In this document: piece by piece, positions 1 to 55,683 of the stretch
Position numbering within the stretch: position 1 is the stretch's first letter
Layout: each line of letters begins with the position of its first letter
Assembly: GCA_024102635.1 (NCBI GenBank)
Contig: JAGFJO010000044.1
Coordinates: 26,453 to 90,452, forward strand
DNA from: Deltaproteobacteria bacterium
GTDB taxonomy: Bacteria > Bdellovibrionota_C > UBA2361 > JAGFJO01
Reading direction: 5' to 3'
DNA length: 64,000 nt
Notes under the pieces: generated by a model
The model's database searches: none
Told to the model about the DNA's origin: nothing
Seen by the model: only the letters and a program-made list of their open reading frames with translations
Translations under genes and position numbers: made by a program

Positions 1-976
1 ACGCGCCGCACTCGCGCTGCCCGGCCTTATAAAATATCTGCAGCGCGAAAAGCCGGCCGCTCTTTATGCAACTGTGGCTCACGTTAATACCTTGGCGATA
101 ATCGCTGCAAAGCTCTCCGGATCTCCCGCCAAAGTCATAGTGCGCGAGTCTAGCGCTCCGTCTGCCGAACAGATACATACCGCCTCCGCCAGAATAACTC
201 ATGCCCTTTCGCATGCACTCTATCGATATTCCGACGGCATAATTGCCGTTTCGAACGGGGTACGCGATAAGCTGGCCTCCTTGATGCCGGCTGCCGCAGA
301 GAAAATTAGAGTTCTGCCCACTCCGGTTATTGATGAATATATTTTCAGCCTGGCGGAAGGCGAGATCGAACATCCATGGCTCAAAAACCGCGAACTTCCG
401 GTAATACTCGGCGCAGGGCGGCTTGTAGAGGAGAAAAACTTCGCGTTGTTAATTCGAGCGTTTCAGGCTGTAGTGCGAAGGCGGCCGGCAAGGTTAGTTA
501 TTTTAGGAGAGGGGCGGTTGAGGAGTTCGTTGACCGAACTGATTGATAGGCTGGATCTAAATCACTCGGTATCGATGCCTGGATTTAGAGTTAATCCGTT
601 CCCCTATTTAAAACACTGCGATCTCTTCGTTCTATCATCCGTATCTGAAGGGATGCCGAATGTATTGCTGCAGGCTATGTCTTTCGGAACGCCGGTTGTA
701 GCCACTGACTGCCAGAGCGGGCCGCGCGAGTGCCTTTCAGATGGATACTACGGAGATCTGGTGCCTTTAAATGATCCGGCCTCATTAAGTGAAGCCATGC
801 TCCGTTCAATCGATTCGCATAGACGCAATGACGCAGCTGCGTATGTGATGCAGAATTACTCCGTGAGCGCGGCAACCAAAGCCTACCTGAGCCTGGCGGG
901 AATCGGTACCATCAGCCGGGATACAGCTCCCCGGAACGAGGTTCCTCTGCTTGCGGGGTTCGAGGCTGTGCAATGA
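1..976 (+). CDS. Glycosyltransferase family 4 (group 1 GT), 5' end probably outside the window
   Basis: C-terminal GT-B signature EGMPNVLLQAMSFGTPVVATD; the ORF begins with GTG at 74 but the GT4 N-domain appears to run to the window edge. Confidence 0.8.
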   Translation, partial: RAALALPGLIKYLQREKPAALYATVAHVNTLAIIAAKLSGSPAKVIVRESSAPSAEQIHTASARITHALSHALYRYSDGIIAVSNGVRDKLASLMPAAAEKIRVLPTPVIDEYIFSLAEGEIEHPWLKNRELPVILGAGRLVEEKNFALLIRAFQAVVRRRPARLVILGEGRLRSSLTELIDRLDLNHSVSMPGFRVNPFPYLKHCDLFVLSSVSEGMPNVLLQAMSFGTPVVATDCQSGPRECLSDGYYGDLVPLNDPASLSEAMLRSIDSHRRNDAAAYVMQNYSVSAATKAYLSLAGIGTISRDTAPRNEVPLLAGFEAVQ

Positions 977-1126: not shown

Positions 1127-2482
1127 TCAGTGCACAGGTTGGTATAAGCCGCGTTCAACGGCTCTAATATCCGCTGCCGATGGCGTCCTGTCCTCCCCTA
1201 CTTGGGCGTAGACGACGTAAAGCTTCGGTGGGCGGGACGCCGCCCACCTCCAGCGCGCTTTCACTGCTGATTCGGTCAACAGCATGCCTAGTAGCATGAG
1301 AAAGGGGCGCTGTTCGAGTATATTGTGACTGAAGAATCCGCCCACAATAGCGACCGTAATAAGGCCCATCCCGGCAGGACATTCCCGTTTGAAATAAACC
1401 CACCAAGAACCGATTAGCAGCATCAGATAGGCGAGAAGGCCTAATAGTCCGCAGTTCACCCACTGCTGCAAGTAAATGTTATGAGGAGGAGTTTCCAGAA
1501 AGCGGCTATGGCCTGTGCCGTGGCCTAATATCGGTGAATCATCTATTTTCTCAAGAGCTGCCTTTGCAGCTTGAATTCTATCACTGCTCGATCCGTCGTC
1601 GATCTGGCTATTGCCGCCCAGTCTATCGAGTCGCGTTCTATAGCCTTCGAACATCGCCGTGTTATTGGCTAACAGCACTGCAACTAGCGCTATAGAAGCA
1701 AGCAGCACCACAATAGATGCGATCCATGCAGCAAGTCTTAAAGCGCTCCATCCTCCTGCTGCCTGACAGTAAATGAAATAGAAGGACAAAAGCGCCAAAA
1801 ACTCTAAAATACCGCTGCGAGACTGTGTCGTGAATACGCCAACCGCGGTCAGTCCGAGGTAAAATAGATCTCCTTTCTTCATCACGGTTGCAGTGCGATA
1901 TGTCAACGACGCCGCGCATAAAAAATTAAGGACGAGGGCGCCATAATTGGAATTACCTGGAAATCCCGCCGCCCTTGATGGCACTACAGAGAAGAAGCCG
2001 GGCAGCATCAAGTCCGTCATCATCGAGAGAAAGAGCGCTACTAAAGCCGCCCGCGCGAAGATTAGGCGCGCACTTCGGAAGCGGCGGTGCAGCAGCAAAA
2101 ACAACGAAAGCACAAAAATTATAAATCCATAAGAATCCAGAAAAATATATTTGGCCCCGTCATGCCAAAATGCTGTAGGGTGCAAGGCCCAGGCAAAGGA
2201 GGCACAAACAATCAGCAGAAATGCAGAGATTGGAAGCAGATTAGCCTCTACCGTCTCCCTTATTGGCAGACCTCTATCTTTAAACCCCGAAACGGTCGAT
2301 ACAACAGCGATCGGAAGCAAAAGCAATATCGCCATGATCGTGGGCGTTGAGATGTAGCCGAATTTCCCAAGCGCCATATCACCCGTGCTCAAGAAAATCG
2401 CACACACAAAAACCACATAGGCATTAGCCAAGATAACTACAAGACGCTGCTTCGAGGTGATATTACTCATACTGAATCGCAT
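1127..2482 (-). CDS. O-antigen ligase/polymerase-like (Wzy/WaaL family) polytopic membrane protein
   Basis: About 10 predicted TM helices with a large periplasmic loop; sits among GT and flippase genes. Confidence 0.6.
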   Translation of the reverse strand: MRFSMSNITSKQRLVVILANAYVVFVCAIFLSTGDMALGKFGYISTPTIMAILLLLPIAVVSTVSGFKDRGLPIRETVEANLLPISAFLLIVCASFAWALHPTAFWHDGAKYIFLDSYGFIIFVLSLFLLLHRRFRSARLIFARAALVALFLSMMTDLMLPGFFSVVPSRAAGFPGNSNYGALVLNFLCAASLTYRTATVMKKGDLFYLGLTAVGVFTTQSRSGILEFLALLSFYFIYCQAAGGWSALRLAAWIASIVVLLASIALVAVLLANNTAMFEGYRTRLDRLGGNSQIDDGSSSDRIQAAKAALEKIDDSPILGHGTGHSRFLETPPHNIYLQQWVNCGLLGLLAYLMLLIGSWWVYFKRECPAGMGLITVAIVGGFFSHNILEQRPFLMLLGMLLTESAVKARWRWAASRPPKLYVVYAQVGEDRTPSAADIRAVERGLYQPVH

Positions 2483-2605: not shown

Positions 2606-4135
2606 ATGATTGATCGCGATCAGCTAAGCTCAAAAGTATTGTCAGGCCTGTCGTGGTCTTACTGCTCTGCCGCCATTGACGCCATCTCCCGTCTGGCCAT
2701 CATATCGATTCTCGCTCACCTTCTTACGCCCAGAGACTTCGGAATCGTCGGACTGGCAATTATCTTCACTACCTTCGCCGAACGGGTGGGACAATTTGGG
2801 ATCGGACCGGCAGTTGTACAGTCAGAAATTCTAACCCGCCGCCACATCGATTCTGCCGTCGTAATATCCCTAATCACAGGGCTTGTAATGGCTGGCACTT
2901 TATTTATGGCCAGCTACCCAATAGCGGGCTTTTTCAAAGAGCCGATATTACAACCGGTAACAGCTGTGCTTGCTCTTGTATTTATATTTGACGCAATAAC
3001 TCAGGTACCACTTTGTCTTCTCATGAGAGACATGCAGTTTAAGCAGCTCATGATAGTGGAAAACGGGGCGTATCTGCTGGGAAGCGGCGCCATGGGTATC
3101 GCGCTTGCTCTAAGCGGATTTGGCGTGTGGGCATTGGTGTTTTCGCACCTAGGATCGCGGCTAATAAAGCTTCTACTAACTCTAAAAATGTCACGGTCCG
3201 GCTGGTCGATCTCTATACACAAACAGGAGGCGTCTCAGCTTTTTCGCACCGGCGTTGGTTTCAGTTTAGGACGATTGCTGAACTTCGTCGCGCTTCAGGG
3301 AGATAATCTGGTAGTGGGCCGATTTCTGGGAGCCGCTGCTTTAGGTCTATATAGCAGGTCATACCAGCTAATGACGCTTCCTTCGACCTATATCGCTCAA
3401 ATAATCGATCGCGTCCTTTTTCCTGCAATGGCTCAACGTCAAAGCAACCCTGCCAAACTAAGTGCAGTTCTACTGGTAGGAATCGAGCTAATAGGACTGG
3501 TGTCGCTGCCTTTCTCCGTTTTTGTGCTGCTTTTTTCACGGGAGATAATTTCACTTTTGTTCGGATCTCATTGGATTGGCGCCGCCGGTGTGCTGCAGGT
3601 GCTCTCCCTTGGGATTTTTTTTAGGTGCGCCTATAAATGTGGAGATACCGTGCTGAGAGCTTTAGGCGCCGTTTTTCAGCATGCCGGAATACAGGCGGCC
3701 TATGCTGCGCTTGTGATCGGGGGTTGTATTCTAGGCAGCCGTTGGGGACTAACAGGAATAACAATTGCGGTTCTAGCGGCTGTATTCATCAACTACCTGC
3801 TTTTGTCATACCGCGCCCTTCAGCTGTTGAGGTTGAATGTACAACAATTCTTAGCTGCACATCTTCCGGGTATATGGCTGAGCGCCGCTCTTGCGGCCGT
3901 ACTGCTACCACTACAAATTTGGATCCGTTCAGTGACCTCCTCTGATTTGGTGGTTCTGCTCACCGCTGCCTCTGTCAGTACTGCGGTGCTACTCGCGGGC
4001 AGCAGAGCCGCACCGGACGGCTTCAAACCTATTGAAAGCGCCAAGCTCCTGGGAAGGCTTCAAAGACCATACTGGCTGCTGCGCGGAGCCGAGTTCGTCA
4101 CCGGCATGCAGATGCGGGCAGCCGAGAGGTTGTAG
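2606..4135 (+). CDS. Wzx-type polysaccharide flippase (MOP superfamily polysaccharide biosynthesis protein)
   Basis: 509 aa with 12-14 TM helices and typical Wzx hydrophobic architecture; the stop is 1 bp before the next GT start. Confidence 0.7.
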   Translation: MIDRDQLSSKVLSGLSWSYCSAAIDAISRLAIISILAHLLTPRDFGIVGLAIIFTTFAERVGQFGIGPAVVQSEILTRRHIDSAVVISLITGLVMAGTLFMASYPIAGFFKEPILQPVTAVLALVFIFDAITQVPLCLLMRDMQFKQLMIVENGAYLLGSGAMGIALALSGFGVWALVFSHLGSRLIKLLLTLKMSRSGWSISIHKQEASQLFRTGVGFSLGRLLNFVALQGDNLVVGRFLGAAALGLYSRSYQLMTLPSTYIAQIIDRVLFPAMAQRQSNPAKLSAVLLVGIELIGLVSLPFSVFVLLFSREIISLLFGSHWIGAAGVLQVLSLGIFFRCAYKCGDTVLRALGAVFQHAGIQAAYAALVIGGCILGSRWGLTGITIAVLAAVFINYLLLSYRALQLLRLNVQQFLAAHLPGIWLSAALAAVLLPLQIWIRSVTSSDLVVLLTAASVSTAVLLAGSRAAPDGFKPIESAKLLGRLQRPYWLLRGAEFVTGMQMRAAERL

Positions 4136-4136
4136 A

Positions 4137-5315
4137 ATGAAAGGCGATCCCTCCAAGATAATGCACTGTATTACTTCGCTTCATGGCGACGGCGCACAAC
4201 GCATGCTGCTGCGGCTTACTACTGCACTTAATGAACTCGGCCTGAATAACATAATCGTTTCACTTAGCGGCAAAAGTGAACTCGCTGAAAACTTCAAGAA
4301 GGCCGGCTCCACGGTACTCGAGCTGTGCATGCCCGCTGGCCGTCCTACATTCGCCGGCTTTCTGCAATTGACAAGGTTAATCAAGCGGCATCGTCCCGGC
4401 ATAATCCAGGGGTGGATGCATCATGCCAATCTCGCAGCGACGGTGGCAAGTTGGGCCTCCGGCGTCAGGCCGTACGTATATTGGAATATCCGCAGGTCCC
4501 TCTACGATCTAAGCTATGACGGCCTCTCAACAAAGGCGGCAATAACGCTGGGTGCTTTGCTCTCGCACCATACACGAGCGATTATCTACAACAGTGATGT
4601 CAGCAGACGCCAGCACGAAACCATCGGATACTGCGCGAAGCGTTCGATTATGATTTACAATGGGTTCGACTATAGTAGATATCGTCCAGATCCATCGGCC
4701 CGAATTGCGCTGTTGCAACGCTTGAATATTCCCGGGGACGCTATAATCGTGGGCTGCGTTGGAAGGTTCCACCCTCATAAGGGTCAGAGCTATCTTTTGG
4801 AGGCAATTCCCCACGTAGTGGCAAAGGTGCCGCACGCTCATTTCGTGCTGGCTGGCCGAGAGGTCGACGCTCGAAATAATGAGATCGCGCGGCTTTTGAA
4901 AAATAGAGAAGTATCAAATGTGCATCTACTCGGAGGATCAGAGAACGTCGAGAAGTTAATGGCGGCTTTTGACGTTTACTGTTCCCCTTCAACTAGCGAG
5001 GGGTTCCCGAATGTACTTGCAGAGGCGATGTCATGCGGAGTTCCGTGTGTGGCAACAGATGCTGGAGCATCGGCCCAGCTGCTGGAAGGACTCGGACTTA
5101 TCGTAGAGAGAGGGAACTCAAGTGCTATTTCACAAGCCATCCTTTCGATGATTCAGCTCGGGCCGCTAAAGCGGGCGAAACTTGGCGAACTCGGGCGCCG
5201 GAGAATAACAGAACAGTACTCTATGGAGCTCGTGATCGAGAGATACCGCCGTTTATATCTACCAGAGACGGCCCTTGCGCCGGCGGCTATAGCGGGTCCA
5301 TACGTAGGCGTCTAA
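4137..5315 (+). CDS. Glycosyltransferase family 4
   Basis: N-terminus MKGDPSKIMHCITSLHGDGAQRMLL and the EGFPNVLAEAMSCGVPCVATD motif; GAGG RBS before the ATG at 4137. The track start at 4032 overlaps wzx and is unlikely. Confidence 0.85.
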   Translation: MKGDPSKIMHCITSLHGDGAQRMLLRLTTALNELGLNNIIVSLSGKSELAENFKKAGSTVLELCMPAGRPTFAGFLQLTRLIKRHRPGIIQGWMHHANLAATVASWASGVRPYVYWNIRRSLYDLSYDGLSTKAAITLGALLSHHTRAIIYNSDVSRRQHETIGYCAKRSIMIYNGFDYSRYRPDPSARIALLQRLNIPGDAIIVGCVGRFHPHKGQSYLLEAIPHVVAKVPHAHFVLAGREVDARNNEIARLLKNREVSNVHLLGGSENVEKLMAAFDVYCSPSTSEGFPNVLAEAMSCGVPCVATDAGASAQLLEGLGLIVERGNSSAISQAILSMIQLGPLKRAKLGELGRRRITEQYSMELVIERYRRLYLPETALAPAAIAGPYVGV

Positions 5316-5360
5316 AACCCGCAAGCTCGTAACTACCGGGGCTAGCAATGAAACCAGCGA

Positions 5361-5401
5361 GAGCGGTGAGATAAAAGCTCAATCTCCTCTCGCTGACCTC
5401 G
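5361..5401. terminator. 9-bp-stem hairpin between convergent genes (CAGCGAGAG ... CTCTCGCTG), no clear U-tract
   Basis: Inverted repeat read directly in the 5316-5417 intergenic space. Confidence 0.3.
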
Positions 5402-5417
5402 CCGGCCTCTTGGTTAT

Positions 5418-7208
5418 TTAAGTTTTACTCTTACGTTGCCTTTTTAACCTCAGTCTTTCGAGCTTGTTCTCCCTTGCACGAATCAGACGGCGAAGCGCCT
5501 TCCCTCGTATGTTGAGAGAAGCAAGCACTCTTCTAGCCTTTTTGCACGAGCGCGATTTATCATCACGGCAAACAACTCTGCTTTTAACCAGCTCTAACCG
5601 TTTTAGCGCCGCACAAGACCCGGAAGGGGCACTTGCCGGGCAGCCTTTGCCGCCACCTGCTCTGTGCTGCTTCTGCTTGTTTTTCTTCTTCGATTTTTTC
5701 CCCTTTCCCTTCTGCTTCTTTTTCTTGCCGTCCGACGGCTTGTTTGGTTGGGCGGTAGGCGTATTAGGAGAACCCGGTGTAGCAGCAGGTGGCTTAGGAG
5801 AGGACGGCGGCTTGGTTGCATCCGGCGGCTGGGCCGGGGTCGGACCTCCCGGGGCGGCTCTTCGCCCTTCCACCTCGGCAGCCATAGAGTGTAACCACTC
5901 CTCCAATATGGTGTATCCGTTTCCATCCGGGTCAGAATTGAAATTATCAGGCACTGAAAGTGCTCTATAGTTTTGCGCCCTGGCAGGCCACCCACCTGCA
6001 TGGCGGGAGCATCCTGACACACAATCCTTTAGCGTCCCCGTACCATTAGCCACCTCAGAGATCACTCTCGCATCGACGTCGTTTCGATCAGCCGGCCTAG
6101 AGCCTGCATTGGCCAGAACGAACTGAAATGTATCGCTTGGTGAACGGGCCGCAGTGGTCATGTTAAGTGGCGGCGATGACGCTTGATATGGGGACTGCGG
6201 CATGCTGGAGATCAACCACTCGCTGCCGCTATTGGTCGGCCGTGTCGGGCCGATGTTATTACTCACGTATGCGCGAGAACCGGATTCCAGATTGCGGCCA
6301 TACAATGGGGCATGAAAGGGGCTGTTTGGTCCTCTCTTATAGACGTTTCCCACCATGTTAAGAAGGATCGGAGCGCCAACGTTGGTGTCGTCGGACATAT
6401 TCATCAGATTCGATCCGCTCGTACCGCCCCAGTTGTAAATGACGTTGTTGATAAAATCTATCGTCGCACCCGCCTTCAACCTGATATTGCGGTCATTGTT
6501 GTGGGCAAATAAAGAATTATGAACCGATATACGAGTTGTAAAATCGCCAATCAGCATGCCCGAACCGTGAGGACCTTCAGGATGAAGAGAGTCGTGAAGC
6601 GACTCCGAAACAATGCTCTTGCTGAATGTGACCTCATGGGTTGATGAATGGTAGGTGCTAGCGTTCTCATCAATTCCCCAGCTGATGGAAAGATGATCTA
6701 GAAATACCTTGTAAGCCCGTCTGCTGCTGGAAGACGTTCCAACTGTCAAACCATCACGGCTCTCTGCCTTCGTGCCCGCTCCATCGCCCGGTCTCACCTC
6801 CATGTGCTGCACCAGTACATTGTGGGACTCTATGCGTAGAGAGGCGCCGGTTAGAAGAATTCCCGGGCTTGGAGCCGTCTGCCCCGCAATAGTGATGTAC
6901 GGACTTCGAATGCTGAGATCTTGGGTTAGTTTAATCTGGCCCGAAACCTCAAAGACACAGACTCTTGGCACCACCGCATCGACACACTCCCTAAGCGAAC
7001 CGCTTCCGCTGTTGTTTAAATTAACCACTTTATAAACAGTGGTTCGCGGGGTAGAGAGATGGCGCCCGCTTCCCGCCACAGTATCCGACCCATATCCTTC
7101 CGCACCGGGAAAGACGGGAACCTGAGCGTTAACGGGCGCCGAAGTAGCACTAACTGCCAGTGCCGCTATCAAGAAGGTTGCGGCGAACCTTGAAAAACCA
7201 ACTGCCAT
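5418..7208 (-). CDS. Secreted pectate-lyase-like polysaccharide lyase (PL1-like beta-helix) with C-terminal Pro-rich linker, poly-Lys tract and Cys/basic tail
   Basis: Signal peptide MAVGFSRFAATFLIAALAVSATSAPVNAQ. PL1-like motifs GAEGYG...GSGSLR, VFLDHLSISWGIDE and HNNDRNIRLKAGATIDFINNVIYNWGG. Tail reads PAQPPDATKPPSSPKPP...DGKKKKQKGKGKKSKKKNKQKQ. Confidence 0.6.
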   Translation of the reverse strand: MAVGFSRFAATFLIAALAVSATSAPVNAQVPVFPGAEGYGSDTVAGSGRHLSTPRTTVYKVVNLNNSGSGSLRECVDAVVPRVCVFEVSGQIKLTQDLSIRSPYITIAGQTAPSPGILLTGASLRIESHNVLVQHMEVRPGDGAGTKAESRDGLTVGTSSSSRRAYKVFLDHLSISWGIDENASTYHSSTHEVTFSKSIVSESLHDSLHPEGPHGSGMLIGDFTTRISVHNSLFAHNNDRNIRLKAGATIDFINNVIYNWGGTSGSNLMNMSDDTNVGAPILLNMVGNVYKRGPNSPFHAPLYGRNLESGSRAYVSNNIGPTRPTNSGSEWLISSMPQSPYQASSPPLNMTTAARSPSDTFQFVLANAGSRPADRNDVDARVISEVANGTGTLKDCVSGCSRHAGGWPARAQNYRALSVPDNFNSDPDGNGYTILEEWLHSMAAEVEGRRAAPGGPTPAQPPDATKPPSSPKPPAATPGSPNTPTAQPNKPSDGKKKKQKGKGKKSKKKNKQKQHRAGGGKGCPASAPSGSCAALKRLELVKSRVVCRDDKSRSCKKARRVLASLNIRGKALRRLIRARENKLERLRLKRQRKSKT

Positions 7209-7470
7209 TTGAACCTCTCTGGTTACGAATTAACGAAAAAACGAGAACCCACCCAGGTGACCCGGGCACAACCGGAAAAACCAAGGCAAGCATAATGCCA
7301 GTCATAGACAACAACACGGGGGCCTCTAGCACAAGCGTGGCGGATGATTTATTGATGCAGAATTTGAGATGGTGTTGCACTGCTTCTGGTGAAAACTTCC
7401 GAAACTACGCAAAAAGATAGGATCAAAATGACGTTGGTCAAAGGTATAAAATGAATTCTTGCCCAAAAAA

Positions 7471-7501
7471 AAATGAAAACCTCCGTTTGGAGGTTTTCAT
7501 T
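7471..7501. terminator. Bidirectional rho-independent terminator
   Basis: AATGAAAACCTCC-gttt-GGAGGTTTTCATT with a perfect 13-bp stem; A9 run on one side and T-rich on the other; 44 bp downstream of the minus-strand gene ending at 7544. Confidence 0.7.
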
Positions 7502-7543
7502 TCATTTAAACAACGATGGTGTGGTTCGCGATGCGAGACGCCG

Positions 7544-8758
7544 TTACTTAGAGCGAATCTTCGCTTTCGTCCCGGCCTTGCGGGCCTGCTTTTTAATCAC
7601 AGAGGAGATCGCTTTTGTGCACAAAGCTTGCCCACTGGGCCTCTGAGATCTCTTCTCGATTGACTGCAAAAGTGGATATTCCGAGAATGTGGAGTACCCG
7701 CTGGCCTGAAGATAAGTATCAACCAGCTTCCTAACCGATTTTTTCAATTTTACATTCCTGGGCGATGCTCCGGCAGTTGTAATAGTTTGCCCCAGGCCAT
7801 TTTGGTAATCCGCGACTGTCAAGTTAACCAGCTCATCGACCCTAAGATTGTTCGCCAAGAGTAGGGAAGCGATGATCTTGTCTCGCAGGGCGGTAAGAGT
7901 CTTGAATTTTGAGCGAAGAATTCTCTTTTTGAACTCGCGGGCAATCTTTACCTTGCCGGCGGGCCTAATATCACCGCCCTCGCAGAACGACGCATTAAGC
8001 ACAGCCGGAGGAAGATTTTCCACCTGGCGGCACTCCTTAGCGAAGGTGCTGTTGGAGGTAAACCGCTCCTCGGTTGAAGCGTCAACAAGAGTGAAATTAT
8101 CGATTCTTACCCGCCCATGTGCGACCGGCACAAAGACGCCGAAGGCTGATACCGGTCCAGCCGAAGGCAGCGCAACACCTGAATTTGCCGGTGGTACCGG
8201 CCCCACCCCAGGGGTGTCTGGAGAGGTGCCATAGGTAAGCTCATGAGGTGACAATACTACCGCCTCGAAAAACCCTCGATCTACCTGGCGGGTGACCAGG
8301 TCCGAAAAATACCAGGTTCCGTTAATCAATAGCGCTAACTGGGAGCCGTCCGGGACTCCTTCGAGACTTATACCGCTAAGCCTTTGGTGGTATTCAACCT
8401 GAACGAGGCTGGAGACGTCGAAGCTTAACTCCTCAGTGTAAATTGTAAGCCCGCTAACCTCTCGTGCCCAGAATCCGGCCCCATCCTCAGAACCTCGCGG
8501 ATTGGAGTTTATATCCGTTACATTGCCAGGGCCTCCTGGGGGATGCACCTTCAAGTTTCCGATTTTTGCGCGTCTTATGCCTGGTAAAACTGCGCGCCAA
8601 TCCGCCACCTCAAAGGCATTACGGTGCGGGTTGTGAGCTGACCCGCAGTAGCTGAAGGTCTCGCGGTAGAATGGTGTAGCAGAAGCAGGTACAGTTGCCG
8701 CTAACGCCACTAACATTACTACTATAAAGGAAGTTGATTTGTGTGTTGCGTTTTCCAT
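7544..8758 (-). CDS. Secreted hypothetical protein whose C-terminal ~130 aa resemble a truncated tyrosine-recombinase catalytic domain (box I, no HxxR/Y)
   Basis: Signal peptide MENATHKSTSFIVVMLVALAATVPASA. C-terminus ALRDKIIASLLLANNLRVDELVNLTVADYQ...KKSVRKLVDTYL...PLLQSI...ISSVIKKQARKAG matches the integrase box I/box II pattern; the ORF stops before the HxLRH/Y region. Confidence 0.5.
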   Translation of the reverse strand: MENATHKSTSFIVVMLVALAATVPASATPFYRETFSYCGSAHNPHRNAFEVADWRAVLPGIRRAKIGNLKVHPPGGPGNVTDINSNPRGSEDGAGFWAREVSGLTIYTEELSFDVSSLVQVEYHQRLSGISLEGVPDGSQLALLINGTWYFSDLVTRQVDRGFFEAVVLSPHELTYGTSPDTPGVGPVPPANSGVALPSAGPVSAFGVFVPVAHGRVRIDNFTLVDASTEERFTSNSTFAKECRQVENLPPAVLNASFCEGGDIRPAGKVKIAREFKKRILRSKFKTLTALRDKIIASLLLANNLRVDELVNLTVADYQNGLGQTITTAGASPRNVKLKKSVRKLVDTYLQASGYSTFSEYPLLQSIEKRSQRPSGQALCTKAISSVIKKQARKAGTKAKIRSK

Positions 8759-9446: not shown

Positions 9447-9932
9447 ATGAATGCACAGCAAGCAATTCAATCGCTCTCTTCAATCCCGATCGATTTTAAC
9501 TATTGGATTTTACAATCGATTGCCATGGGCATCACCTGCTTCCTGATCAGAGGTCTTTCTCTCTCCAGCCCTCTAGGAGCGCTTTTTATAGTGCTTGGCC
9601 TGGCATTTGTGAATTCCTTTGCCTGGGATGCGGCGCTCTTTTTCAGTATTCCCGACCGGTTCACATATCATGCGGCACTTCTTCTTCTAATGAACGGCTT
9701 GATTTTTTGGCTGCTGGTTAAGCTACTGCCGGGAATCGAGGTTAGAGGGATTTTGCCGGCGTTGATTGCTCCTGTTGTATTTACAATCACTAGTATGCTG
9801 ATTGAGAAATATGGCAATGACCTTTCCGTTGGCGCCGTATTTCAGATCCTGTTACATCAAGTGCAAGAATTAAAGGAAATGCTGCTCAGCGCAGCACCGG
9901 CAACCGAACATGCAGCCCTCACACAACCCTAA
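9447..9932 (+). CDS. 4-TM membrane protein, possibly phage-holin-4 superfamily-like
   Basis: 161 aa with four hydrophobic segments resembling the PF04020-type small membrane proteins; weak. Confidence 0.35.
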   Translation: MNAQQAIQSLSSIPIDFNYWILQSIAMGITCFLIRGLSLSSPLGALFIVLGLAFVNSFAWDAALFFSIPDRFTYHAALLLLMNGLIFWLLVKLLPGIEVRGILPALIAPVVFTITSMLIEKYGNDLSVGAVFQILLHQVQELKEMLLSAAPATEHAALTQP

Positions 9933-35083: not shown

Positions 35084-35947
35084 TTAGCCTCCCAAGAGCT
35101 GGAGCGCTAGCTGTGGCTGCTGGTTAGCCTGTGCAAGAATTGCGGTTCCTGCCTGCTGCAGAATCGTTAAGCGAGTCAGTTCTGCAGCTTCGAATGCGAC
35201 GTCCACGTCGCGAATTCGGCTCTCCGCTGCTGAGAAGTTCTCCCTAGCAATCTGCAAATTTTCAATTGTTGTGGCAAGTCTACTCTCCGCAGCACCCAAA
35301 GTACCGCGATTTCGAGTAACCGAGACTATCGCTGTGTTAACCGCATCGAGCGCCTGCCGTGCTGCGGACTGTGACAGCTCGTCCGTTGCGCCGGTGATTG
35401 AGTATGTGTGTACCGATGAGTTGGGCGAAGCTAGCCCCAAGGCCGCGAGAGTCGCTTGTACTCCCGAGTACATGACCTGCGAGAGGGAGCTTCCGTCAAA
35501 CCCCACCTGAAAAGTTACATTTCCCCCTCCGCTGAGCAGATAGAGCCCGTTAAACTCTGTAGTGACAGCGATACGCTCTACCTCGCTCATAAGAGCGCTA
35601 AACTCAAGCTGCAGCGCCGATCGCTGGCCATTGCTGAAAACTCCGTTAGCTGATTGCTCGGCAAGTTCTGCCAGACGGCTTAGAACGTTTGTTATCTGGC
35701 CAATTGCGCCGTCGGTAATGGCAATAACCGAAATGCCGTCATTTGCATTTCGAATCGCCACTGTTGCTACCCGTGCGTCGGCTTTCAGGCTCTCGGCGAT
35801 TGCGAGTCCGGCTGCGTCATCCTTTGCCCTGTTGATTCTTAAACCGGAAGAGAGCCTCTCGTATGCGGTCCTGAGTCTCTCAGTTGACAGCCCGATGTTC
35901 CTCTGGGCTGCTAATGATGGTAAGTTAGTCCTAATATTGAGTGTCAT
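35084..35947 (-). CDS. fliC: Flagellin, short 287-aa type
   Basis: N-terminus MTLNIRTNLPSLAAQRNIG...LSSGLRINRAKDDAAGLAIAESL and C-terminus ESRIRDVDVAFEAAELTRLTILQQAG...LAQANQQPQLALQLLGG. Confidence 0.85.
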   Translation of the reverse strand: MTLNIRTNLPSLAAQRNIGLSTERLRTAYERLSSGLRINRAKDDAAGLAIAESLKADARVATVAIRNANDGISVIAITDGAIGQITNVLSRLAELAEQSANGVFSNGQRSALQLEFSALMSEVERIAVTTEFNGLYLLSGGGNVTFQVGFDGSSLSQVMYSGVQATLAALGLASPNSSVHTYSITGATDELSQSAARQALDAVNTAIVSVTRNRGTLGAAESRLATTIENLQIARENFSAAESRIRDVDVAFEAAELTRLTILQQAGTAILAQANQQPQLALQLLGG

Positions 35948-36064
35948 TTGCTACCATCCTTTTGGTATTTACCGCTTAATCCTGTTCAACAGTTTACCTC
36001 CAGTTTTACTTCTCATAGCGGGAGCGAGACTCACTATGGAGCGGCGCTCCCGCCGCGGGCTTCA

Positions 36065-36928
36065 TTATCCACCGAGCAGCTGCAGCGCGAGCTGCGGCTG
36101 AGCGTTAGCCTGCGCCAAGACGGCTGCGCCGGCCTGTTGCAGAATGTTAATTCTCGTTAGCTCAGCGGCCTCAGATGCTACATCAACATCCCGGATGCGG
36201 CTCTCGGCAGCCTTAAAGTTTTCGCGGGCCACTTGCAGGTTACTGATAGTAACCTCGAGCCGGCTTTCAGCCGCCCCCAAAGTACCTCTGTTCCGGGTAA
36301 TCGAAACGATAGCAGCATTAATTGCATCAAGGGCCAACCGAGAGGCGCTTTGCGAGAGAATGTCGGTCGAGTCAATAATTGAGTAGGTAACCGCCGAGGT
36401 TCCAGCTGGTGCTAACCCGAGCGCAGCAAGGGTTGTTTCTACTCCGGTGTATGACACTTGCGAAGTCGAAGCAGCATCGAAGCCGACCTGGAAAACCACC
36501 GTACCGGCGCCGCTCAGCAGTTTGAGTCCGTTGAATTCAGTAGTGAATGCGATACGCTCAATCTCACTTGTCAACGCGGTGAACTCGTTAGCAAGGGCTG
36601 ATCTCTGCGTATTACCGTACACACCGTTAGCCGATTGCTCGGCCAGCTCTGCAAGTCGGGTGAGAACGTTTCCAATTTGGCCGATCGCTTGATCGGCAAT
36701 GGAGATTATGGAGATACCGTCGCTGGCATTTCTGATAGCCACCGTGGCTACACGAGAATCGGCCTTCAAGCTCTCGGCGATAGAGAGACCGGCCGCGTCG
36801 TCGCGAGCGCGATTTATCCGGAGACCTGACGATAACCGCTCATAGGCGGTGTTCAATAATCCCGTCGAAGCGTCGAGGTTGCGCTGCGCTATGAGTGAAG
36901 GAACGTTGGTGCGAATATTGATTGCCAT
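36065..36928 (-). CDS. fliC: Flagellin paralogue (287 aa), in tandem
   Basis: MAINIRTNVPSLIAQRNL...; conserved D0/D1 termini; about 60% identical to the neighbour. Confidence 0.85.
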   Translation of the reverse strand: MAINIRTNVPSLIAQRNLDASTGLLNTAYERLSSGLRINRARDDAAGLSIAESLKADSRVATVAIRNASDGISIISIADQAIGQIGNVLTRLAELAEQSANGVYGNTQRSALANEFTALTSEIERIAFTTEFNGLKLLSGAGTVVFQVGFDAASTSQVSYTGVETTLAALGLAPAGTSAVTYSIIDSTDILSQSASRLALDAINAAIVSITRNRGTLGAAESRLEVTISNLQVARENFKAAESRIRDVDVASEAAELTRINILQQAGAAVLAQANAQPQLALQLLGG

Positions 36929-40099: not shown

Positions 40100-41605
40100 T
40101 TAGCAGTTGAATTTATGCCCATTTCTCTTGCACCACTCGGAGAAGTCAGGTAGCGCAAAAAGCTTGGCTAACTTCTCGTCTACCCCGTGATTCACGGCCT
40201 CCTCGAAACGCGTCTCCGAGATCAGCCCCTTCAGCCTAGATAACGCTTCGCGAACTTCTCGCGTGATATTTTGCAGCATCTGTTCTTCAACGCTAAGTTT
40301 CAACTCGGAAATGGCTTGCTTACGTTCAACCAGGTAGCGCGACTCCAGCGTAAAATCGGTTTTGGAGGACGCCTTACCGGAGGATTTTTGTGCTCGCGGT
40401 TCTTTTATATGCTGTGTAGAACTCGCTCCATCCCCTCTCGAGTAACCGCCCATGTCCTCCCCGGGCAGCATAAAGCTTTCAACATTCTCGACCGCCCGGT
40501 ATAGAAACCCGACCGGGCTTCTCTGTACTAGCTTGCTATTCCCGGCTATCAGCTTGTCCACATGCTCTATGACTCTGCGTATCTTGCCCCTAAGCTCAAG
40601 TGATCGCCCAGACACCAGGCGGCGCGCTTGAGGCGCAGAAATGCCTCTATTGATCAGTAATCCTGCGAGCTCACGATCTTCATCGCCAACCGGCTCACTT
40701 GGCGGCAGCAACATCGGCTGCACAGGCCTTCCGCTCTCCTCTTCGGTCGGTTTATCCAAAGAGCGCGGTTTACCGCGTGCAGCATACATCACTATTTCGC
40801 AGTCGCTGCCCTTACCGTAATACTCCACTTTGGAGAGAAAGCCCGTATGTATCAGCTCCTCAAAAGCCGGATCAAGCTGCTGCCGTATCGAACTAGTATA
40901 TTTATAATTCCGGGAAATACCGACCTTTTCATGCGCGAAGCAAAACAAATTCATCTGCACTTTGGCTTTATACCAAAAATGCTTATCCAGAAACCGGTAA
41001 ACCCGCTTTGAAATAGCGCTTTTCAAACTCAAATAAAATTCGAGGTCGAGTTTTTTTATGAACCCGACCTGAAAACTTTTGAAAAGCACTTCACTCCAGA
41101 TGAAAAAACTGCGCTTGTTCTCCCCGTCCCTTCCGTCGTTGATCTCATACCCGTCGATAATGCCGAAATTCTTCGTATGGTGCAGTTTTGTTTCATTGTC
41201 GTAAAAAGCGTTGGTGGCCTTTATTCTAACGCCGCTAAGCCGATCCAAGGCGCGCTGCAGCCGGGTATAACTGCGGCCCTCGGTTGTCCATCTCAAGGTT
41301 TTGAGTATCTCATAGCGAGTAAAATACACCTTTGGATTTCGCATCCCGCTCTCGACGGTTAGCTTCAAAAGACCAAGCAGAACCTCGTCATCCGATGCTG
41401 TCGGTAATCCAAATTTATCGGCCCCGGTAATTATCCATTTTCGATCCACCAGTTCGCCGTTCTTTGTTCGAATATTGTCGCTGAACTCTAGAGTTTTAGT
41501 TTTAGGATTAGAGCGTGTAGATAGAACCGTTAGTGGAAATTCAGCCAAATTCATCTCATCTCTCGAGAGACGTTTCGGCATCTGTGTAAGTATTAACTGA
41601 TCCAT
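40100..41605 (-). CDS. repA: Plasmid-type replication initiator protein RepA (RPA family)
   Basis: N-terminus MDQLILTQMPKRLSRDEMNLAEFPLTVLS, characteristic of the replication initiator protein A family; followed by an iteron array; ATG at 41605. Confidence 0.7.
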   Translation of the reverse strand: MDQLILTQMPKRLSRDEMNLAEFPLTVLSTRSNPKTKTLEFSDNIRTKNGELVDRKWIITGADKFGLPTASDDEVLLGLLKLTVESGMRNPKVYFTRYEILKTLRWTTEGRSYTRLQRALDRLSGVRIKATNAFYDNETKLHHTKNFGIIDGYEINDGRDGENKRSFFIWSEVLFKSFQVGFIKKLDLEFYLSLKSAISKRVYRFLDKHFWYKAKVQMNLFCFAHEKVGISRNYKYTSSIRQQLDPAFEELIHTGFLSKVEYYGKGSDCEIVMYAARGKPRSLDKPTEEESGRPVQPMLLPPSEPVGDEDRELAGLLINRGISAPQARRLVSGRSLELRGKIRRVIEHVDKLIAGNSKLVQRSPVGFLYRAVENVESFMLPGEDMGGYSRGDGASSTQHIKEPRAQKSSGKASSKTDFTLESRYLVERKQAISELKLSVEEQMLQNITREVREALSRLKGLISETRFEEAVNHGVDEKLAKLFALPDFSEWCKRNGHKFNC

Positions 41606-41734
41606 ATTCAAAAACTTGAAAGGAACTTTAACTTACTTTTAGTTAGTTAAACAATCAGTGTTAAGGTTACTAGTTAGATAGTGAGCGGCACTGATTGCAA
41701 AAGATAAGAGATACTTACAACCGCAAATTTCTTT

Positions 41735-42005
41735 CAGATCACGACGATCCTTAGTTCGCATCACGATAAGATCATAACTCGATGCACGATCAAAATTATC
41801 TCAGCGCGCGATTCGATTTATTCTCGTGCTCGATACTTCTGATTCGGAAGCACGAACTGGATTTACGATGGATCACGACACTTACCCGAGCGCACTATAC
41901 TTAATGCTAATAAAACGAATAAAAACAGGTAGTTAGCATAGCCAAGAGCGGGTAATAAGTACAAGGCAGTCTGCGGAAGCAACGATTTACTTGGTGTCAC
42001 GATTC
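41735..42005. promoter_or_regulatory. oriV-like iteron array: at least 7 copies of (A/G)(T/C)CACGA at 22-23 bp spacing, one inverted, in an AT-rich region
   Basis: Core hexamers at 41739, 41761, 41784, 41824 (inverted), 41850, 41873 and 41997, read directly from the sequence. Confidence 0.5.
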
Positions 42006-42160
42006 GACGTCTGCTCTTCTCTGCCCCTCTCTCACTTAAAGAAGGTTCCTAAGTGCTACTATTTTTTTCTAACTGTGGCTATTCCTGACTTTAATCTGGA
42101 TCTCCATACCCTTTTCTGCAAAATTACTTATCTCAGTGCACGTATCTTTTGGGGGTTCAG

Positions 42161-42949
42161 GTGGCAACAGTAATCGGAGTAGTGAATCAGAAAGGTGGAG
42201 TTGGAAAAACTACTACAACGGTTAATCTAGGTGCGGCACTTGCGAAGCATGGCAAGCGAACCTTACTCATAGATATCGACGCTCAAAGCAATCTAACGAC
42301 TCATCTTGGCCTTGGGCCGAAAGAAGATGCAGAAGCGGTAGAGAAGCCTTTAATACCAGAGTTCACTATTTACGACGTTCTGAAAGGCAACAAAGAGCTC
42401 AAGGATGTGGTTATACATAGAAGCGATAATCTCGATGTGGTCCCTTCTAGCCTGTTTTTGAGTGCTGCAGATCTAGAGCTTGGCGGAGTGGTCGGAAGGG
42501 AGCTTATCTTGAGGCGGGCCCTAGCTTCTGTAATGGATAGCTACGACTTTGTACTTATTGATTGTCCCCCTGCCCTTGGTCTTCTCTCGCTTAACGCGCT
42601 TGCGGCAGTAAACCGCGTCGTCATTCCTGTCCAGAGTGAGTACTTAGCGCTTCACGGAGTCCGTCAACTACTGGATACTATTGATCAGGTTAGAGGCATA
42701 TATAATCCTGCACTTGTTGTCGGGGGAGTTCTTATCTGCCTTCACGATAACCGCAAGCGATTGGCGCGAGCAGTGTCAGATACTATACGCGCCTATTTCG
42801 GCGATCTGGTCTTTGATACTGTAATCCGATCAAATGTGGCACTAGCTGAGGCGCCCGCAAGTGGGCAAACTATATTCGAATATTCGCTGAAGTCTTCTGG
42901 TGCAGAGGATTATGAGGCGCTCGTAAAGGAGATTTTGGAAGATGTCTAA
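42161..42949 (+). CDS. parA: ParA-family partition ATPase
   Basis: VIGVVNQKGGVGKTTT deviant Walker A; GTG start at 42161 with a GGGGG RBS (the track TTG at 42149 is also possible). Confidence 0.85.
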   Translation: MATVIGVVNQKGGVGKTTTTVNLGAALAKHGKRTLLIDIDAQSNLTTHLGLGPKEDAEAVEKPLIPEFTIYDVLKGNKELKDVVIHRSDNLDVVPSSLFLSAADLELGGVVGRELILRRALASVMDSYDFVLIDCPPALGLLSLNALAAVNRVVIPVQSEYLALHGVRQLLDTIDQVRGIYNPALVVGGVLICLHDNRKRLARAVSDTIRAYFGDLVFDTVIRSNVALAEAPASGQTIFEYSLKSSGAEDYEALVKEILEDV

Positions 42950-43808
42950 AAGAAAACTGGTATTAGCGAATAATCCCCTACTTTCCGGTCCCGCGCTCGG
43001 TGAACGCGAACGAATCGGCATTCCCTACCGCCAACTTGCTTTGAATGCAATTGAACGAGATCCAAACCAGCCTCGAGTACACTTTGATGAAGATAGACTG
43101 CAGGAGCTGGCCTCGTCCATTCGGACCTATGGTATTCTGAGCCCCCTTCTCGTGCGGCCGTCAAAAGTAGCAGGCAAGTATATTCTTATCTCCGGCGAGC
43201 GGCGGATGAGAGCGGCTCAACTTGTCGGACTGGCCACTGTACCTGCGCTGATTGATCAAACCGAGGTCGAATCGGGCGAGAGAACTCTAGCAATGCAGCT
43301 GGTTGAAAATCTTCAGCGGGCAGATCTAAGTCCATTGGAGCGGGCGCATGCAATTGGCGCACTAAAGGAGAGCTATTCTCTCAGTATTCGAGAAGTTGCT
43401 GATAGATTGGGAGTATCAAAAGGAATGGTTCAGAGGAGCTTGGATATCTTGGAGCTTCCTGATGATCTGCTAAATGCATTGAGAGAGGGTGCTTCCGAGT
43501 CTAAGATCCTTCTACTTTCCAAGATTGAGAATGAGGAGATACGCGCCAGCTACTTAAAGGATCTGGATGTACTTACGCGCAATCAGTTAAAAAAAGACAT
43601 TGAGAAGAGCTCTACAGAGAGCGAAGAGAGCACGAACGCACTCAGCCCCGAAGACCACCGAATTGCCGATGAAATTCGAAGAGCACTCGGCACAAAGGTT
43701 AGAATGTTTCGGCCGAAACCTGATTCTGAAGGTGGACGAATTACCATCGACTTTTATACCAACGAGGACCTACAGGTAATATTCCGAAGGCTAGTGGCTG
43801 AGGGGTAG
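42942..43808 (+). CDS. parB: ParB/Spo0J-family partition protein
   Basis: ILISGERRMRAAQLVG ParB box and HTH; overlaps the parA stop. Confidence 0.85.
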   Translation: MSKRKLVLANNPLLSGPALGERERIGIPYRQLALNAIERDPNQPRVHFDEDRLQELASSIRTYGILSPLLVRPSKVAGKYILISGERRMRAAQLVGLATVPALIDQTEVESGERTLAMQLVENLQRADLSPLERAHAIGALKESYSLSIREVADRLGVSKGMVQRSLDILELPDDLLNALREGASESKILLLSKIENEEIRASYLKDLDVLTRNQLKKDIEKSSTESEESTNALSPEDHRIADEIRRALGTKVRMFRPKPDSEGGRITIDFYTNEDLQVIFRRLVAEG

Positions 43809-55596: not shown

Positions 55597-55683
55597 CATC
55601 AGCCAAAACCCCGCTGGCATTGCTGCAGCTCGGCATCTCAGCCTTACTTGCCTCTCGCGATATGGTGGGATAGAAACTTCCCG

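Follow-up and report, generated by a model that had tools for sequence, protein, structure and literature searches.

That a gene cluster for an exopolysaccharide (EPS) may encode its own glycanase is a well-established concept. The EPS-locus glycanases known to date come from a few model pathogens (AlgL, PslG, PelA, VexL and RbmB); they govern the length of the chains, the release of polymer and the dispersal of biofilms, and have found use as tools against biofilms. RbmB cleaves the Vibrio polysaccharide (VPS; alpha-1,4 linkage) and disrupts biofilms (PMC11637428, PMC12993940); AlgL, a periplasmic enzyme, interacts with the secretion complex, and in VexL R232 is the proposed base while R235 binds the carboxylate, mutation of either residue (nearly) abolishing activity (PMC6003464). 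The first structure of subfamily 2 of polysaccharide lyase family 1 (PL1_2), that of PfPL1 (PDB entry 9buj), belongs to a group that also holds PelZ and three Bacteroides pectin lyases; the gene sits in a pectin-degradation locus, and the mechanism proposed for the enzyme is an Arg-mediated beta-elimination in which Ca2+ possibly serves substrate binding rather than catalysis (PMC11229556). Here we describe a PL1_2-like lyase gene at positions 5418-7208 (minus strand) of a 64,000-nucleotide stretch of Deltaproteobacteria bacterium DNA (GenBank assembly GCA_024102635.1, contig JAGFJO010000044.1, positions 26,453 to 90,452), which we call the window. The product, 596 residues from an ATG start, consists of a signal peptide, a PL1_2-like core, a linker, a Lys run and a four-Cys end; it is identical to the NCBI protein MCO6430071.1, labelled 'MAG: pectate lyase [Deltaproteobacteria bacterium]', where MAG denotes a metagenome-assembled genome.

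We lean, with some reserve, towards the view that this enzyme trims the organism's own acidic EPS, as a Sec-exported, PL1_2-like member of a conserved Wzx/Wzy module in which the C-terminal tail would act as a tether. The module would comprise a Wzx flippase, a Wzy polymerase, two glycosyltransferases of family GT4 and the lyase itself. The identity of the substrate, the lyase activity, the location of the enzyme (extracellular or periplasmic) and the function of the tail are all inferred from sequence comparisons and from the analogy with the systems mentioned above.

The assignment to PL1 is the firmest part of this picture. A first-pass annotation, made from the letters of the window alone, had called the product a PL1-type lyase with a beta-helix fold, and profile, sequence and structure searches all bear this out. 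The NCBIfam model for PelZ (NF041900) matches residues 12-421 with E = 4.7e-67, over 403 of its 422 profile positions; since the score is 226.6 bits against an equivalog cutoff of 840 bits, the protein is a homologue of PelZ and not an orthologue. With the single sequence as query, 9buj is the sole solid match in the PDB (E = 1.2e-29); with a 56-sequence profile it is found at 1.5e-47, VexL (6fi2) appears at 1e-7, and the fungal pectin lyases A and B also emerge. The identity to a Dickeya homologue of the PelZ clade is 34% over 446 columns. The catalytic module (residues 29-446; positions 5871-7124, minus strand) is predicted to have the right-handed parallel beta-helix fold, together with a C-terminal alpha-helical adornment. 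In the AlphaFold2 (AF2) model, computed from the family alignment, the predicted local distance difference test score (pLDDT) exceeds 90 over about residues 29-446, and helices 357-367, 377-388 and 434-446 are present as in the C-terminal helical adornment of PL1_2. Foldseek ranks 9buj first (E = 2e-20, alignment spanning 483 columns), followed by 6fi2 (2e-9) and then by classic PL1 structures; 9buj, 6fi2, 1idk, 2bsp, 1pxz, 1qcx and 1bn8 are all matched at a probability of 1.00, while PL9, PL6, tailspikes and RbmB are far weaker. Thus the prediction yields a confident PL1-like beta-helix with the catalytic Arg intact, and not a member of a non-lyase beta-helix family. A Pfam scan of the lyase returns nothing at E <= 1, Pec_lyase_C (PF00544) included, and a precomputed Pfam lyase domain is found in none of the close homologues listed; in view of the PDB and NCBIfam results, this looks like a gap in the coverage of the branch and not like evidence against PL1. 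We are therefore confident of the predicted fold, and place the protein in the CAZy family PL1, nearest to subfamily 2; its branch could be PL1_2 itself or an unassigned branch of PL1, the radiation to which it belongs being separate from the PelZ clade in a neighbour-joining (NJ) tree.

The two motif blocks cited by the first-pass annotation are also present. The vWiDH-like block, VFLDHLSISWGIDE (residues 168-181; 6666-6707, minus strand), was recognized by motif reading and in the family alignment; its first part, VFLDH (168-172), pairs with WIDH in pectin lyase B and with IIIDH in PfPL1 when compared with these structures. The R-x-P-x-x-R / NN-Y-W block appears as DRNIRLK at residues 239-245 and INNVIYNW at 253-260, with Ile at position 242 where Pro is usual. 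The catalytic block R240-N-I-R243-L-K245 (6474-6491, minus strand) is aligned to R232-N-P-R235 of VexL, and R240 also to the Arg at chain position 220 of PfPL1. (The 'Arg235' printed for PfPL1 was discarded, as position 235 of the aligned chain is not an Arg, and we relied on the VexL numbering.) From these alignments R240 is predicted to be the Bronsted base, with R243 and K245 as partners of the carboxylate. The lyase keeps R240, N241, D171, E181, E202, H209 and H214, which are invariant in the family alignment, as well as H172 and D180 (at least 96% conserved), D152 (at least 90%) and K245 (51 of the 56 family sequences). D152 is aligned to the Asp of the GGDAI motif of pectin lyase B; the acidic residues D152, D180, E181 and E202 are candidate Ca2+ ligands, perhaps arranged as D131/E166/D170 are in PelC. 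PfPL1 itself is reported to be without a catalytic Ca2+ pocket (PMC11229556). The alignment also places DPDGNGYTILEEWLH (residues 426-440; 5889-5933, minus strand) at the end of the conserved core; the DPDGNGYT motif within it is probably equivalent to the pseudo-EF-hand Ca2+ site with which the fold of PfPL1 terminates. Two core Cys pairs, 75/84 and 396/400, are invariant in the family alignment and would suit disulfides in an exported protein.

The flippase, polymerase and glycosyltransferase genes that had been noticed beside the lyase are identified by Pfam as Wzx, Wzy_C and two GT4 genes. GT4a (74-976, plus strand) is probably truncated by the window edge; it is followed by the Wzy-type polymerase (Wzy_C; 1127-2482, minus strand), the Wzx flippase (Polysacc_synt_3, a TuaB-like MOP flippase; 2606-4135, plus strand) and GT4b (4137-5315, plus strand). 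The listed TTG start of GT4b at 4032 overlaps the Wzx gene by about 100 nt; the true start is likely to be the ATG at 4137, which lies directly after the Wzx stop (4133-4135) and ahead of the start of the GT4 domain. In what follows P numbers denote homologous proteins (P0001 being the lyase of the window) and L numbers fetched genome loci. Among all the fetched loci, L086 provides the best match for each of the four EPS genes of the window (GT4a 41%, Wzy 38%, Wzx 43%, GT4b 39%, the last to a GT4 gene); GT4a is also matched in L082 (42%), and L082, L004 and L026 all contain partial matches to these genes. In L086 the start of the lyase gene (P0027, 49% identity) overlaps the stop of a sulfotransferase gene, within a cluster of Wzx, Wzy, Wza, Wzc and two GT4 genes; further on there are genes for CysN/C, CysD and adenosine 5'-phosphosulfate (APS) kinase, which provide for the synthesis of 3'-phosphoadenosine 5'-phosphosulfate (PAPS), a second lyase paralogue and a UDP-glucose dehydrogenase. 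Because the order of the genes differs between the window and L086 and yet the five are found together, we regard them as a functional module and not as the product of chance adjacency or simple shared ancestry.

We have studied how often the association recurs by scoring 85 distinct loci, drawn from 80 fetched genome loci with homologues and eight more from contig look-ups. Hidden Markov models (HMMs) seeded from Pfam-annotated genes were used for nine marker families (Wzx, Wzy, GT4, Wza, Wzc, sulfotransferase, UDP-sugar dehydrogenase, AsnB-type amidotransferase and phosphoglycosyltransferase, PGT), and a lyase was called EPS-linked when at least 2 of these families occurred within 10 kb of it; high-GC loci such as L045 were left out of the Pfam annotation, as greedy picking of open reading frames (ORFs) gave spurious long ORFs. 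By this measure 25 of the 85 loci are EPS-linked. The NJ tree sets apart a PelZ-type clade (pectinolytic and related taxa) and a two-domain clade, with the window lyase outside both; linkage is found in 24/59 of the single-domain loci outside the PelZ clade versus 1/26 in the PelZ and two-domain clades together (Fisher p = 5e-4). The family, with more than 3,000 homologues, spans many phyla, and so do the EPS-linked loci; the Pectobacterium, Dickeya and Samsonia homologues form one clade, at about 35% identity to the window lyase. This distribution, together with the matches in L086, supports the suggestion of the first-pass annotation that the lyase is dedicated to the organism's own acidic EPS.

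In most of the linked loci there are cluster genes on both sides of the lyase. At least 6 loci, mostly from Steroidobacteraceae, have the lyase 54-244 bp upstream of a PGT gene and in the same direction; judging from this spacing and from the overlap in L086, co-transcription with EPS genes is likely in some relatives. P0086 (48% identity, from a Bdellovibrionales MAG) is encoded immediately after Wzy, in a cluster that further holds AsnB, Wzx, a sulfotransferase, GT4 and CapK-like genes, and P0012 (52% identity) lies beside methyltransferase, GT4, Wzc and Wza genes. In L026 (Nitrospinales) the lyase stands between two UDP-sugar 6-dehydrogenases, in a cluster that also contains enzymes resembling those of the WbpB, WbpD and WbpE steps, a GT2, Wzx, Wzy and GT4; the cluster of L012 (Steroidobacter) has an AsnB-type amidotransferase, a WcaJ-type PGT, Wzx and a sulfotransferase, and in L047 (Calditrichia) a sulfotransferase adjoins the lyase. 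The chemistry of uronic acids is thus represented in the clusters of the relatives by UDP-sugar 6-dehydrogenases and AsnB-type amidotransferases, which fits the need of a lyase for a uronic acid in its substrate.

The same data bear on a different explanation, by which the enzyme would be a secreted catabolic pectate or pectin lyase that forages on plant or algal polymers of the homogalacturonan type, its tail being a non-canonical substrate-binding module and its adjacency to EPS genes incidental. The pectin activity of the PL1_2 members PelZ, BT_4115/4116/4119 and PfPL1 (PMC11229556) speaks for it, and so does the conservation of acidic residues that may bridge Ca2+ to uronates. The lyase gene is, moreover, monocistronic and convergent on the EPS genes. 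Extra N-terminal modules on Pro/Thr-rich (PT-rich) linkers occur in relatives, and modules appended in this way are typical of secreted catabolic enzymes. Other observations are difficult to reconcile with foraging: the pectinolytic, PelZ-type clade is separate and almost never EPS-linked, while the radiation of the window lyase frequently is; the five-gene module is conserved with L086; and the PelZ cutoff is missed widely. Pfam annotation of the window covered 40 of the larger ORFs, and no genes for pectin catabolism or utilisation are found among them; their functions are housekeeping, redox, cell-wall, flagellin and signalling. On balance we consider foraging unlikely, although it deserves more weight than any of the alternatives discussed further on.

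Several points weigh against an enzyme acting on the cell's own EPS. In the window, EPS genes are found on just one flank of the lyase, the opposite flank being occupied by a truncated integrase-like ORF. The lyase and GT4b are convergent, with a gap of 102 bp; upstream of the lyase there are a strong intrinsic-terminator-like hairpin that closes the preceding ORF (15-bp stem and T run; 7470-7503, minus strand) and a promoter-like site (TTGACC, 16-nt spacer, TATCTT; 7414-7441, minus strand; a consensus match only). With a terminator ahead of it and a promoter-like site of its own, the lyase appears to be a separate transcription unit, and by these sequence signals it does not form one operon with the EPS genes of the window. 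Genes for uronic-acid precursors, Wza and Wzc are not visible in the window, as the locus runs off its edge. Some close relatives, such as P0065 (L083) and the lyase of L005, have no EPS genes within 10 kb. All the PL1_2 enzymes characterised and named in PMC11229556 are active on pectin. The frequency of linkage can be set only against a crude chance expectation of about 3%, which comes from an assumed three 25-kb clusters per 5-Mb genome. Finally, the basic tail is absent from most EPS-linked relatives; it is accordingly not required for the association, and is better seen as an add-on than as part of the core system.

If, as we favour, the substrate is the organism's own polymer, the groove of the beta-helix would bind a 4-linked, uronic-acid-containing stretch of the EPS made by the Wzx/Wzy pathway. 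R240 would then abstract the C5 proton while R243 and K245 neutralise the carboxylate, possibly with the help of Ca2+ held by the conserved acidic residues, and the chain would be cut by beta-elimination. As a result the polymer might be trimmed, released or remodelled, as is the Vi antigen by VexL and the VPS of Vibrio by RbmB. The tail, made up of a Pro-rich disordered spacer, a stretch of poly-Lys and a basic helical module, would keep the enzyme on the polyanionic polymer or on the cell surface, in place of the carbohydrate-binding-like modules borne by other members of the family. A variant to which we assign a low probability is that the module modifies the polymer through the same abstraction of the C5 proton, for example as an epimerase, and not as a depolymerase.

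The tail has the composition that had been read from the sequence: a PxxP-rich linker, a Lys run, a four-Cys segment and a basic end were all found. The linker (residues 447-492; 5733-5870, minus strand) is 33% Pro, contains 7 PxxP motifs and is mostly predicted to be disordered, as is the Lys run (residues 493-517; 5658-5732, minus strand), which is encoded by an 85% purine tract. The run had been described as about 70% Lys over 25 residues; it is indeed there, but that proportion is approached only in a 19-residue core (13/19, or 68%, in 495-513), whereas the 25 residues 493-517 contain 13 Lys (52%) and the densest 25-residue stretch reaches 56%. Two further listed ORFs overlap the tail, 5464-5970 (plus strand; a Phe-rich antisense frame) and 5603-6022 (minus strand; an Arg-rich +1 frame); as by-products of the purine tract that encodes the Lys run, they are not genes. 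The basic helical end (residues 518-596; 5421-5657, minus strand) has Cys at 523, 532, 547 and 555. In the AF2 model residues 460-528 fall below a pLDDT of 50, while helices 531-543 and 553-595 are predicted at 70-94; the long terminal helix has a stripe of Leu and Ile compatible with packing or with the formation of a coiled coil. This end is probably a small basic helical module that disulfides would stabilise. The net charge of residues 446-596 is +37, versus -5 for the core.

Such a composition raises the question of whether the tail is a non-functional or artefactual extension, due to a lost stop, a frameshift or an assembly error, so that the core alone would matter. It has no homologue that we could find, is of low complexity and partly encoded by a purine tract prone to slippage, and most members of the family end at about residue 446. 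The chance of 157 open codons after the core is, however, about 1e-3 at the window's own stop frequency, and the remaining two frames of the region are closed by stops, which makes an accident of read-through unlikely. The helical prediction for the terminal 65 residues (pLDDT 70-94) and the independent occurrence of linker-plus-basic tails in a probable paralogue, also with four Cys, and in three further relatives argue in the same direction, and we give very little credence to an artefact.

The structured end of the tail is, as far as sequence searches go, an orphan: when 1.84 billion representatives were searched exhaustively with residues 518-596 (HMMER), just two matches emerged. Both are spurious, being eukaryote-like tandem-repeat proteins whose scores were summed over the repeats. 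The probable paralogue is P0003 (MCO6430280.1), whose accession lies about 200 from that of the window lyase under the same organism label, so that it probably belongs to the same MAG. It has a PT-rich linker of about 150 residues, a basic end (+26) and exactly four Cys, and AF2 predicts the same plan for it, though less confidently; compared pairwise, the tails of P0001 and P0003 have no detectable similarity (E = 15). P0004, whose contig is too short to be informative about its neighbours, ends in a Lys/Ala/Arg-rich helical tail (+20) and P0082 in a tail of SKK repeats (+16), neither of which can be aligned in sequence to that of the window lyase; P0002, P0040 and P0045 have polybasic insertions. 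A net charge of +10 or more within 20 residues is reached by 6 of the 120 relatives among those listed, and in the same set the basic tails or inserts are confined to the Bdellovibrionota-type lineage; other relatives carry the N-terminal modules on PT-rich linkers already mentioned. Conservation of charge and composition without conservation of sequence, at a place where relatives carry other modules, is what one expects of an electrostatic tether to a polyanion. Most likely, then, the tail would be a lineage-specific electrostatic tether to a polyanionic polymer, to the cell surface or to extracellular DNA (eDNA). A precedent exists in a folded basic module with affinity for polygalacturonate (PMC9843283).

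Other roles for the tail were considered. It shows no motif, hydrophobic segment or family match for the known C-terminal sorting or anchor signals PEP-CTERM, MYXO-CTERM, GlyGly-CTERM and the C-terminal domain (CTD) of the type IX secretion system (T9SS), and its predicted structure is helical and not beta, unlike the beta-sandwich of the T9SS CTD. The terminal helix as an amphipathic membrane anchor was rejected, the helix being judged too polar and too weak (hydrophobic moment <=0.61, mean hydrophobicity <=-0.12). A link to the PEP-CTERM/exosortase system was also dropped: the GT4b, AsnB-type and PGT genes match the XrtA/PEP-CTERM models of NCBIfam far below their cutoffs, and no exosortase was seen. 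Nor do basic tails appear to be a habit of the genome, as no comparable run occurs in other plausible genes of the window; what else was picked up consists of ORFs that are short or overlap others, and of a modest patch in the hydrolase encoded at 55648-56889.

A polycationic tail could also serve aggression. The enzyme might be a secreted depolymerase directed at the capsule or EPS of other bacteria, with the tail binding anionic surfaces of the prey such as lipopolysaccharide (LPS), capsule or teichoic acids. The host is an uncultured bacterium of the Bdellovibrionota type: the best named matches of the tryptophanyl-tRNA synthetase (TrpRS) encoded in the window are MAGs of Oligoflexia, Bdellovibrionales and "Deltaproteobacteria", at 66-70% identity, and it is in this lineage only that basic tails or inserts recur. 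Paralogues are common (P0001 and P0003 are probably from one MAG, and there are five homologues in L050), and the occurrence of homologues of about 30% identity beside structural proteins of phages suggests a use of the fold against the surface glycans of bacteria. Predation does not easily account for the embedding of the lyase in EPS loci, which is seen in many phyla and in the nearest relatives of the window lyase. Most of the phyla with an EPS-linked lyase are not known for predation, and none of the scanned ORFs of the window could be recognised as specific to predation. We regard antagonism as improbable, but not as far-fetched.

The phage homologues were found in 36 phage records; in Cellulophaga phage phi10:1 (L088, KC821618.1) a 'pectate lyase' of about 30% identity, at 3932-5422, directly follows three structural proteins verified by mass spectrometry (MS). 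The PL1_2-like fold therefore probably serves also as a virion-associated depolymerase. A landing of such a depolymerase beside the EPS locus, from a phage or another mobile element, would be in keeping with the existence of these homologues, with the truncated XerC-like recombinase segment that ends the ORF at 7544-8758 and with a gene of the Phage_holin_4_2 family at 9447-9932. The phage proteins are, however, no closer to the window lyase than PelZ is, and at an identity of just about 30% a recent phage origin was rejected. The lyase has a Sec signal, and its conserved core starts right after it, leaving no room for a virion-attachment domain; no phage structural genes lie nearby among the ORFs scanned, the GC content is unremarkable, and in other genomes the same EPS genes accompany the lyase. 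We hardly believe in this origin.

The ORF in question (7544-8758, minus strand; 404 aa) has a signal-peptide-like N-terminus, a middle region without family assignment and a strong terminator after it. Its C-terminal ~120 residues match only the first half of the catalytic domain of tyrosine recombinases, corresponding to XerC-like residues 110-222 and to positions 19-128 of 172 in Pfam Phage_integrase, and stop before the region of the catalytic Tyr. Either the in-frame fusion of a decayed integrase or an unusual re-use of the domain could explain this structure.

The export of the lyase itself is predicted from a Sec-type signal peptide (residues 1-28; 7125-7208, minus strand). Read from the sequence, this has a basic n-region, a hydrophobic core and the cleavage motif ..SAPVNA|Q, and AF2 places a helix at residues 5-20; there is neither a lipobox nor a twin-Arg motif at the N-terminus. 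A Shine-Dalgarno sequence, AGAGAGG, precedes the ATG.

Elsewhere in the window, an apparent match to Wzc at 42149-42949 was rejected as a component of an EPS locus: it is a ParA-type ATPase beside ParB and RepA. The RepA-type replication initiator (PF10134) next to ParA and ParB (40100-43808) raises the possibility that the contig is a plasmid, chromid or secondary replicon, or carries the origin of one; housekeeping genes are also present on it (TrpRS, a biotin-synthase-like radical S-adenosylmethionine (SAM) enzyme, a Mur ligase and flagellins). The flagellin genes are two in tandem, of 287 aa (35084-36928, minus strand). An SGNH/GDSL hydrolase at 55648-56889 (plus strand), 48 kb from the locus, bears the basic patch KIVKRRINKKVKRRGARF and is weakly AlgX-like, and may likewise be an enzyme that modifies polysaccharides.

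The survey of relatives yielded some further observations on the family. A class of about 860-1040 aa with two tandem PL1_2-like domains is abundant, mainly in MAGs labelled Bdellovibrionota, Deltaproteobacteria and Proteobacteria (loci L019-L022, L025, L027, L035, L036, L049 and L055; proteins P0002, P0006-P0011 and others). None of the 10 tandem-domain loci examined is EPS-linked, and in P0002, P0040 and P0045, which are of this class, the polybasic insertion lies in or near the second domain. Gene multiplication is common: a Myxococcota MAG (L050, 42-11335) packs five homologues into about 11 kb, with a single one on the strand opposite to the remaining four; there are three lyase copies in L029, and two each in L042, L047, L028, L054, L084 and L086. 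Homologues of 35-42% identity occur in archaeal and candidate phyla radiation (CPR) MAGs, namely L028 (Woesearchaeota), L039 (Thermoplasmata), L009 (Falkowbacteria) and L059 (Saccharibacteria); in L028 the two lyase copies are beside a Wzx gene. These could reflect horizontal transfer or contamination in binning.

Sulfotransferases recur in the lyase-bearing Wzx/Wzy clusters (L086 9315-14425, L012 16495-17742, L047 8663-9595, L082 3590-4516); together with the full PAPS set of L086, the gene content suggests that sulfated EPS is made in several non-cyanobacterial phyla. Among bacteria, sulfated EPS has been described as unique to cyanobacteria (PMC8205485). A more general proposal, which we put forward only tentatively and with more doubt than belief, is that a broad PL1_2-like branch is a regular part of Wzx/Wzy pathways for uronic-acid-containing, often sulfated EPS across phyla, and that the Bdellovibrionota-type lineage has repeatedly gained unrelated polycationic tails for charge-based targeting. 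In the open-access literature we met with no account of Wzx/Wzy clusters, sulfotransferase-bearing ones included, that have a PL1_2-like lyase as a component, nor of polycationic tails on such lyases; what appears to be new here is the presence of a PL1_2-like branch in EPS clusters, its breadth and the charge-based tail. If the proposal is true, "pectate lyase" annotations in environmental genomes need to be read again, sulfotransferase-bearing EPS clusters are flagged in many non-cyanobacterial phyla, and ready-made, specific depolymerases become available for characterising such polymers. The tail would provide a simple case of electrostatic targeting of an enzyme to a polyanionic matrix. 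Since EPS lyases encoded by the cluster itself are already a familiar concept, these results are useful rather than paradigm-changing.

These results can be set against the systems with which we began. The role resembling that of AlgL in alginate synthesis, which the first-pass annotation had proposed, stands as a functional analogy but not as a kinship of fold or family, for which VexL and RbmB are closer precedents. AlgL, as the window lyase would on the reading favoured here, has its gene together with those for the synthesis of an acidic EPS and acts on the polymer of its own cell (PMC6003464). The tail of the window lyase has no equivalent in AlgL. AlgL has an unrelated fold and belongs to another family (PL5, alpha/alpha barrel), in a synthase-dependent pathway. 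A parallel to the tail is offered by BT0996-C, a module rich in positive residues that binds polygalacturonic acid (PMC9843283); BT0996-C is a folded carbohydrate-binding module, whereas disorder is predicted for most of the tail apart from its small helical end, and no homology of the tail to anything was detected.

PfPL1 and PelZ are the best matches of the window lyase in sequence, profile and fold, and share with it the parallel beta-helix, a helical adornment ending in a Ca2+ motif of the DxDxDGY type and a catalytic Arg in an R-x-P/I-R block. The identity is just 23-34%, and the window lyase lies outside the PelZ clade; they act on pectin, while its gene is found in a neighbourhood of EPS biosynthesis. 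Neither PfPL1 (a chain of 458 residues) nor the Dickeya homologue of the PelZ clade (433 aa) has such a tail, and PfPL1 has Ala where the family-invariant E202 stands in the window lyase.

VexL (6fi2; subfamily PL1_13; capsule loci of Burkholderiales) is likewise a beta-helix lyase of PL1 whose gene lies within a locus for polysaccharide assembly; it cleaves the cell's own uronic-acid polymer, the Vi antigen, and has a signal peptide (PMC6003464). In sequence it is remote (profile E 1e-7; 21% identity in Foldseek), and it differs in working within an ABC-transporter pathway and not a Wzx/Wzy one, and in being periplasmic, metal-independent and without DXD acidic motifs (PMC6003464). The family of the window lyase keeps invariant acidic residues instead, and the window lyase has a linker and a tail where VexL has neither. 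RbmB of Vibrio cholerae (9ozd) belongs to another family and shows only a generic beta-helix similarity (Foldseek rank 23, E ~1e-3, template modelling (TM) score 0.18-0.26); as a beta-helix lyase of the cell's own Wzx/Wzy-type EPS it is nevertheless the closest functional analogy, for the Wzx/Wzy pathway, to the role that we favour for the lyase of the window.

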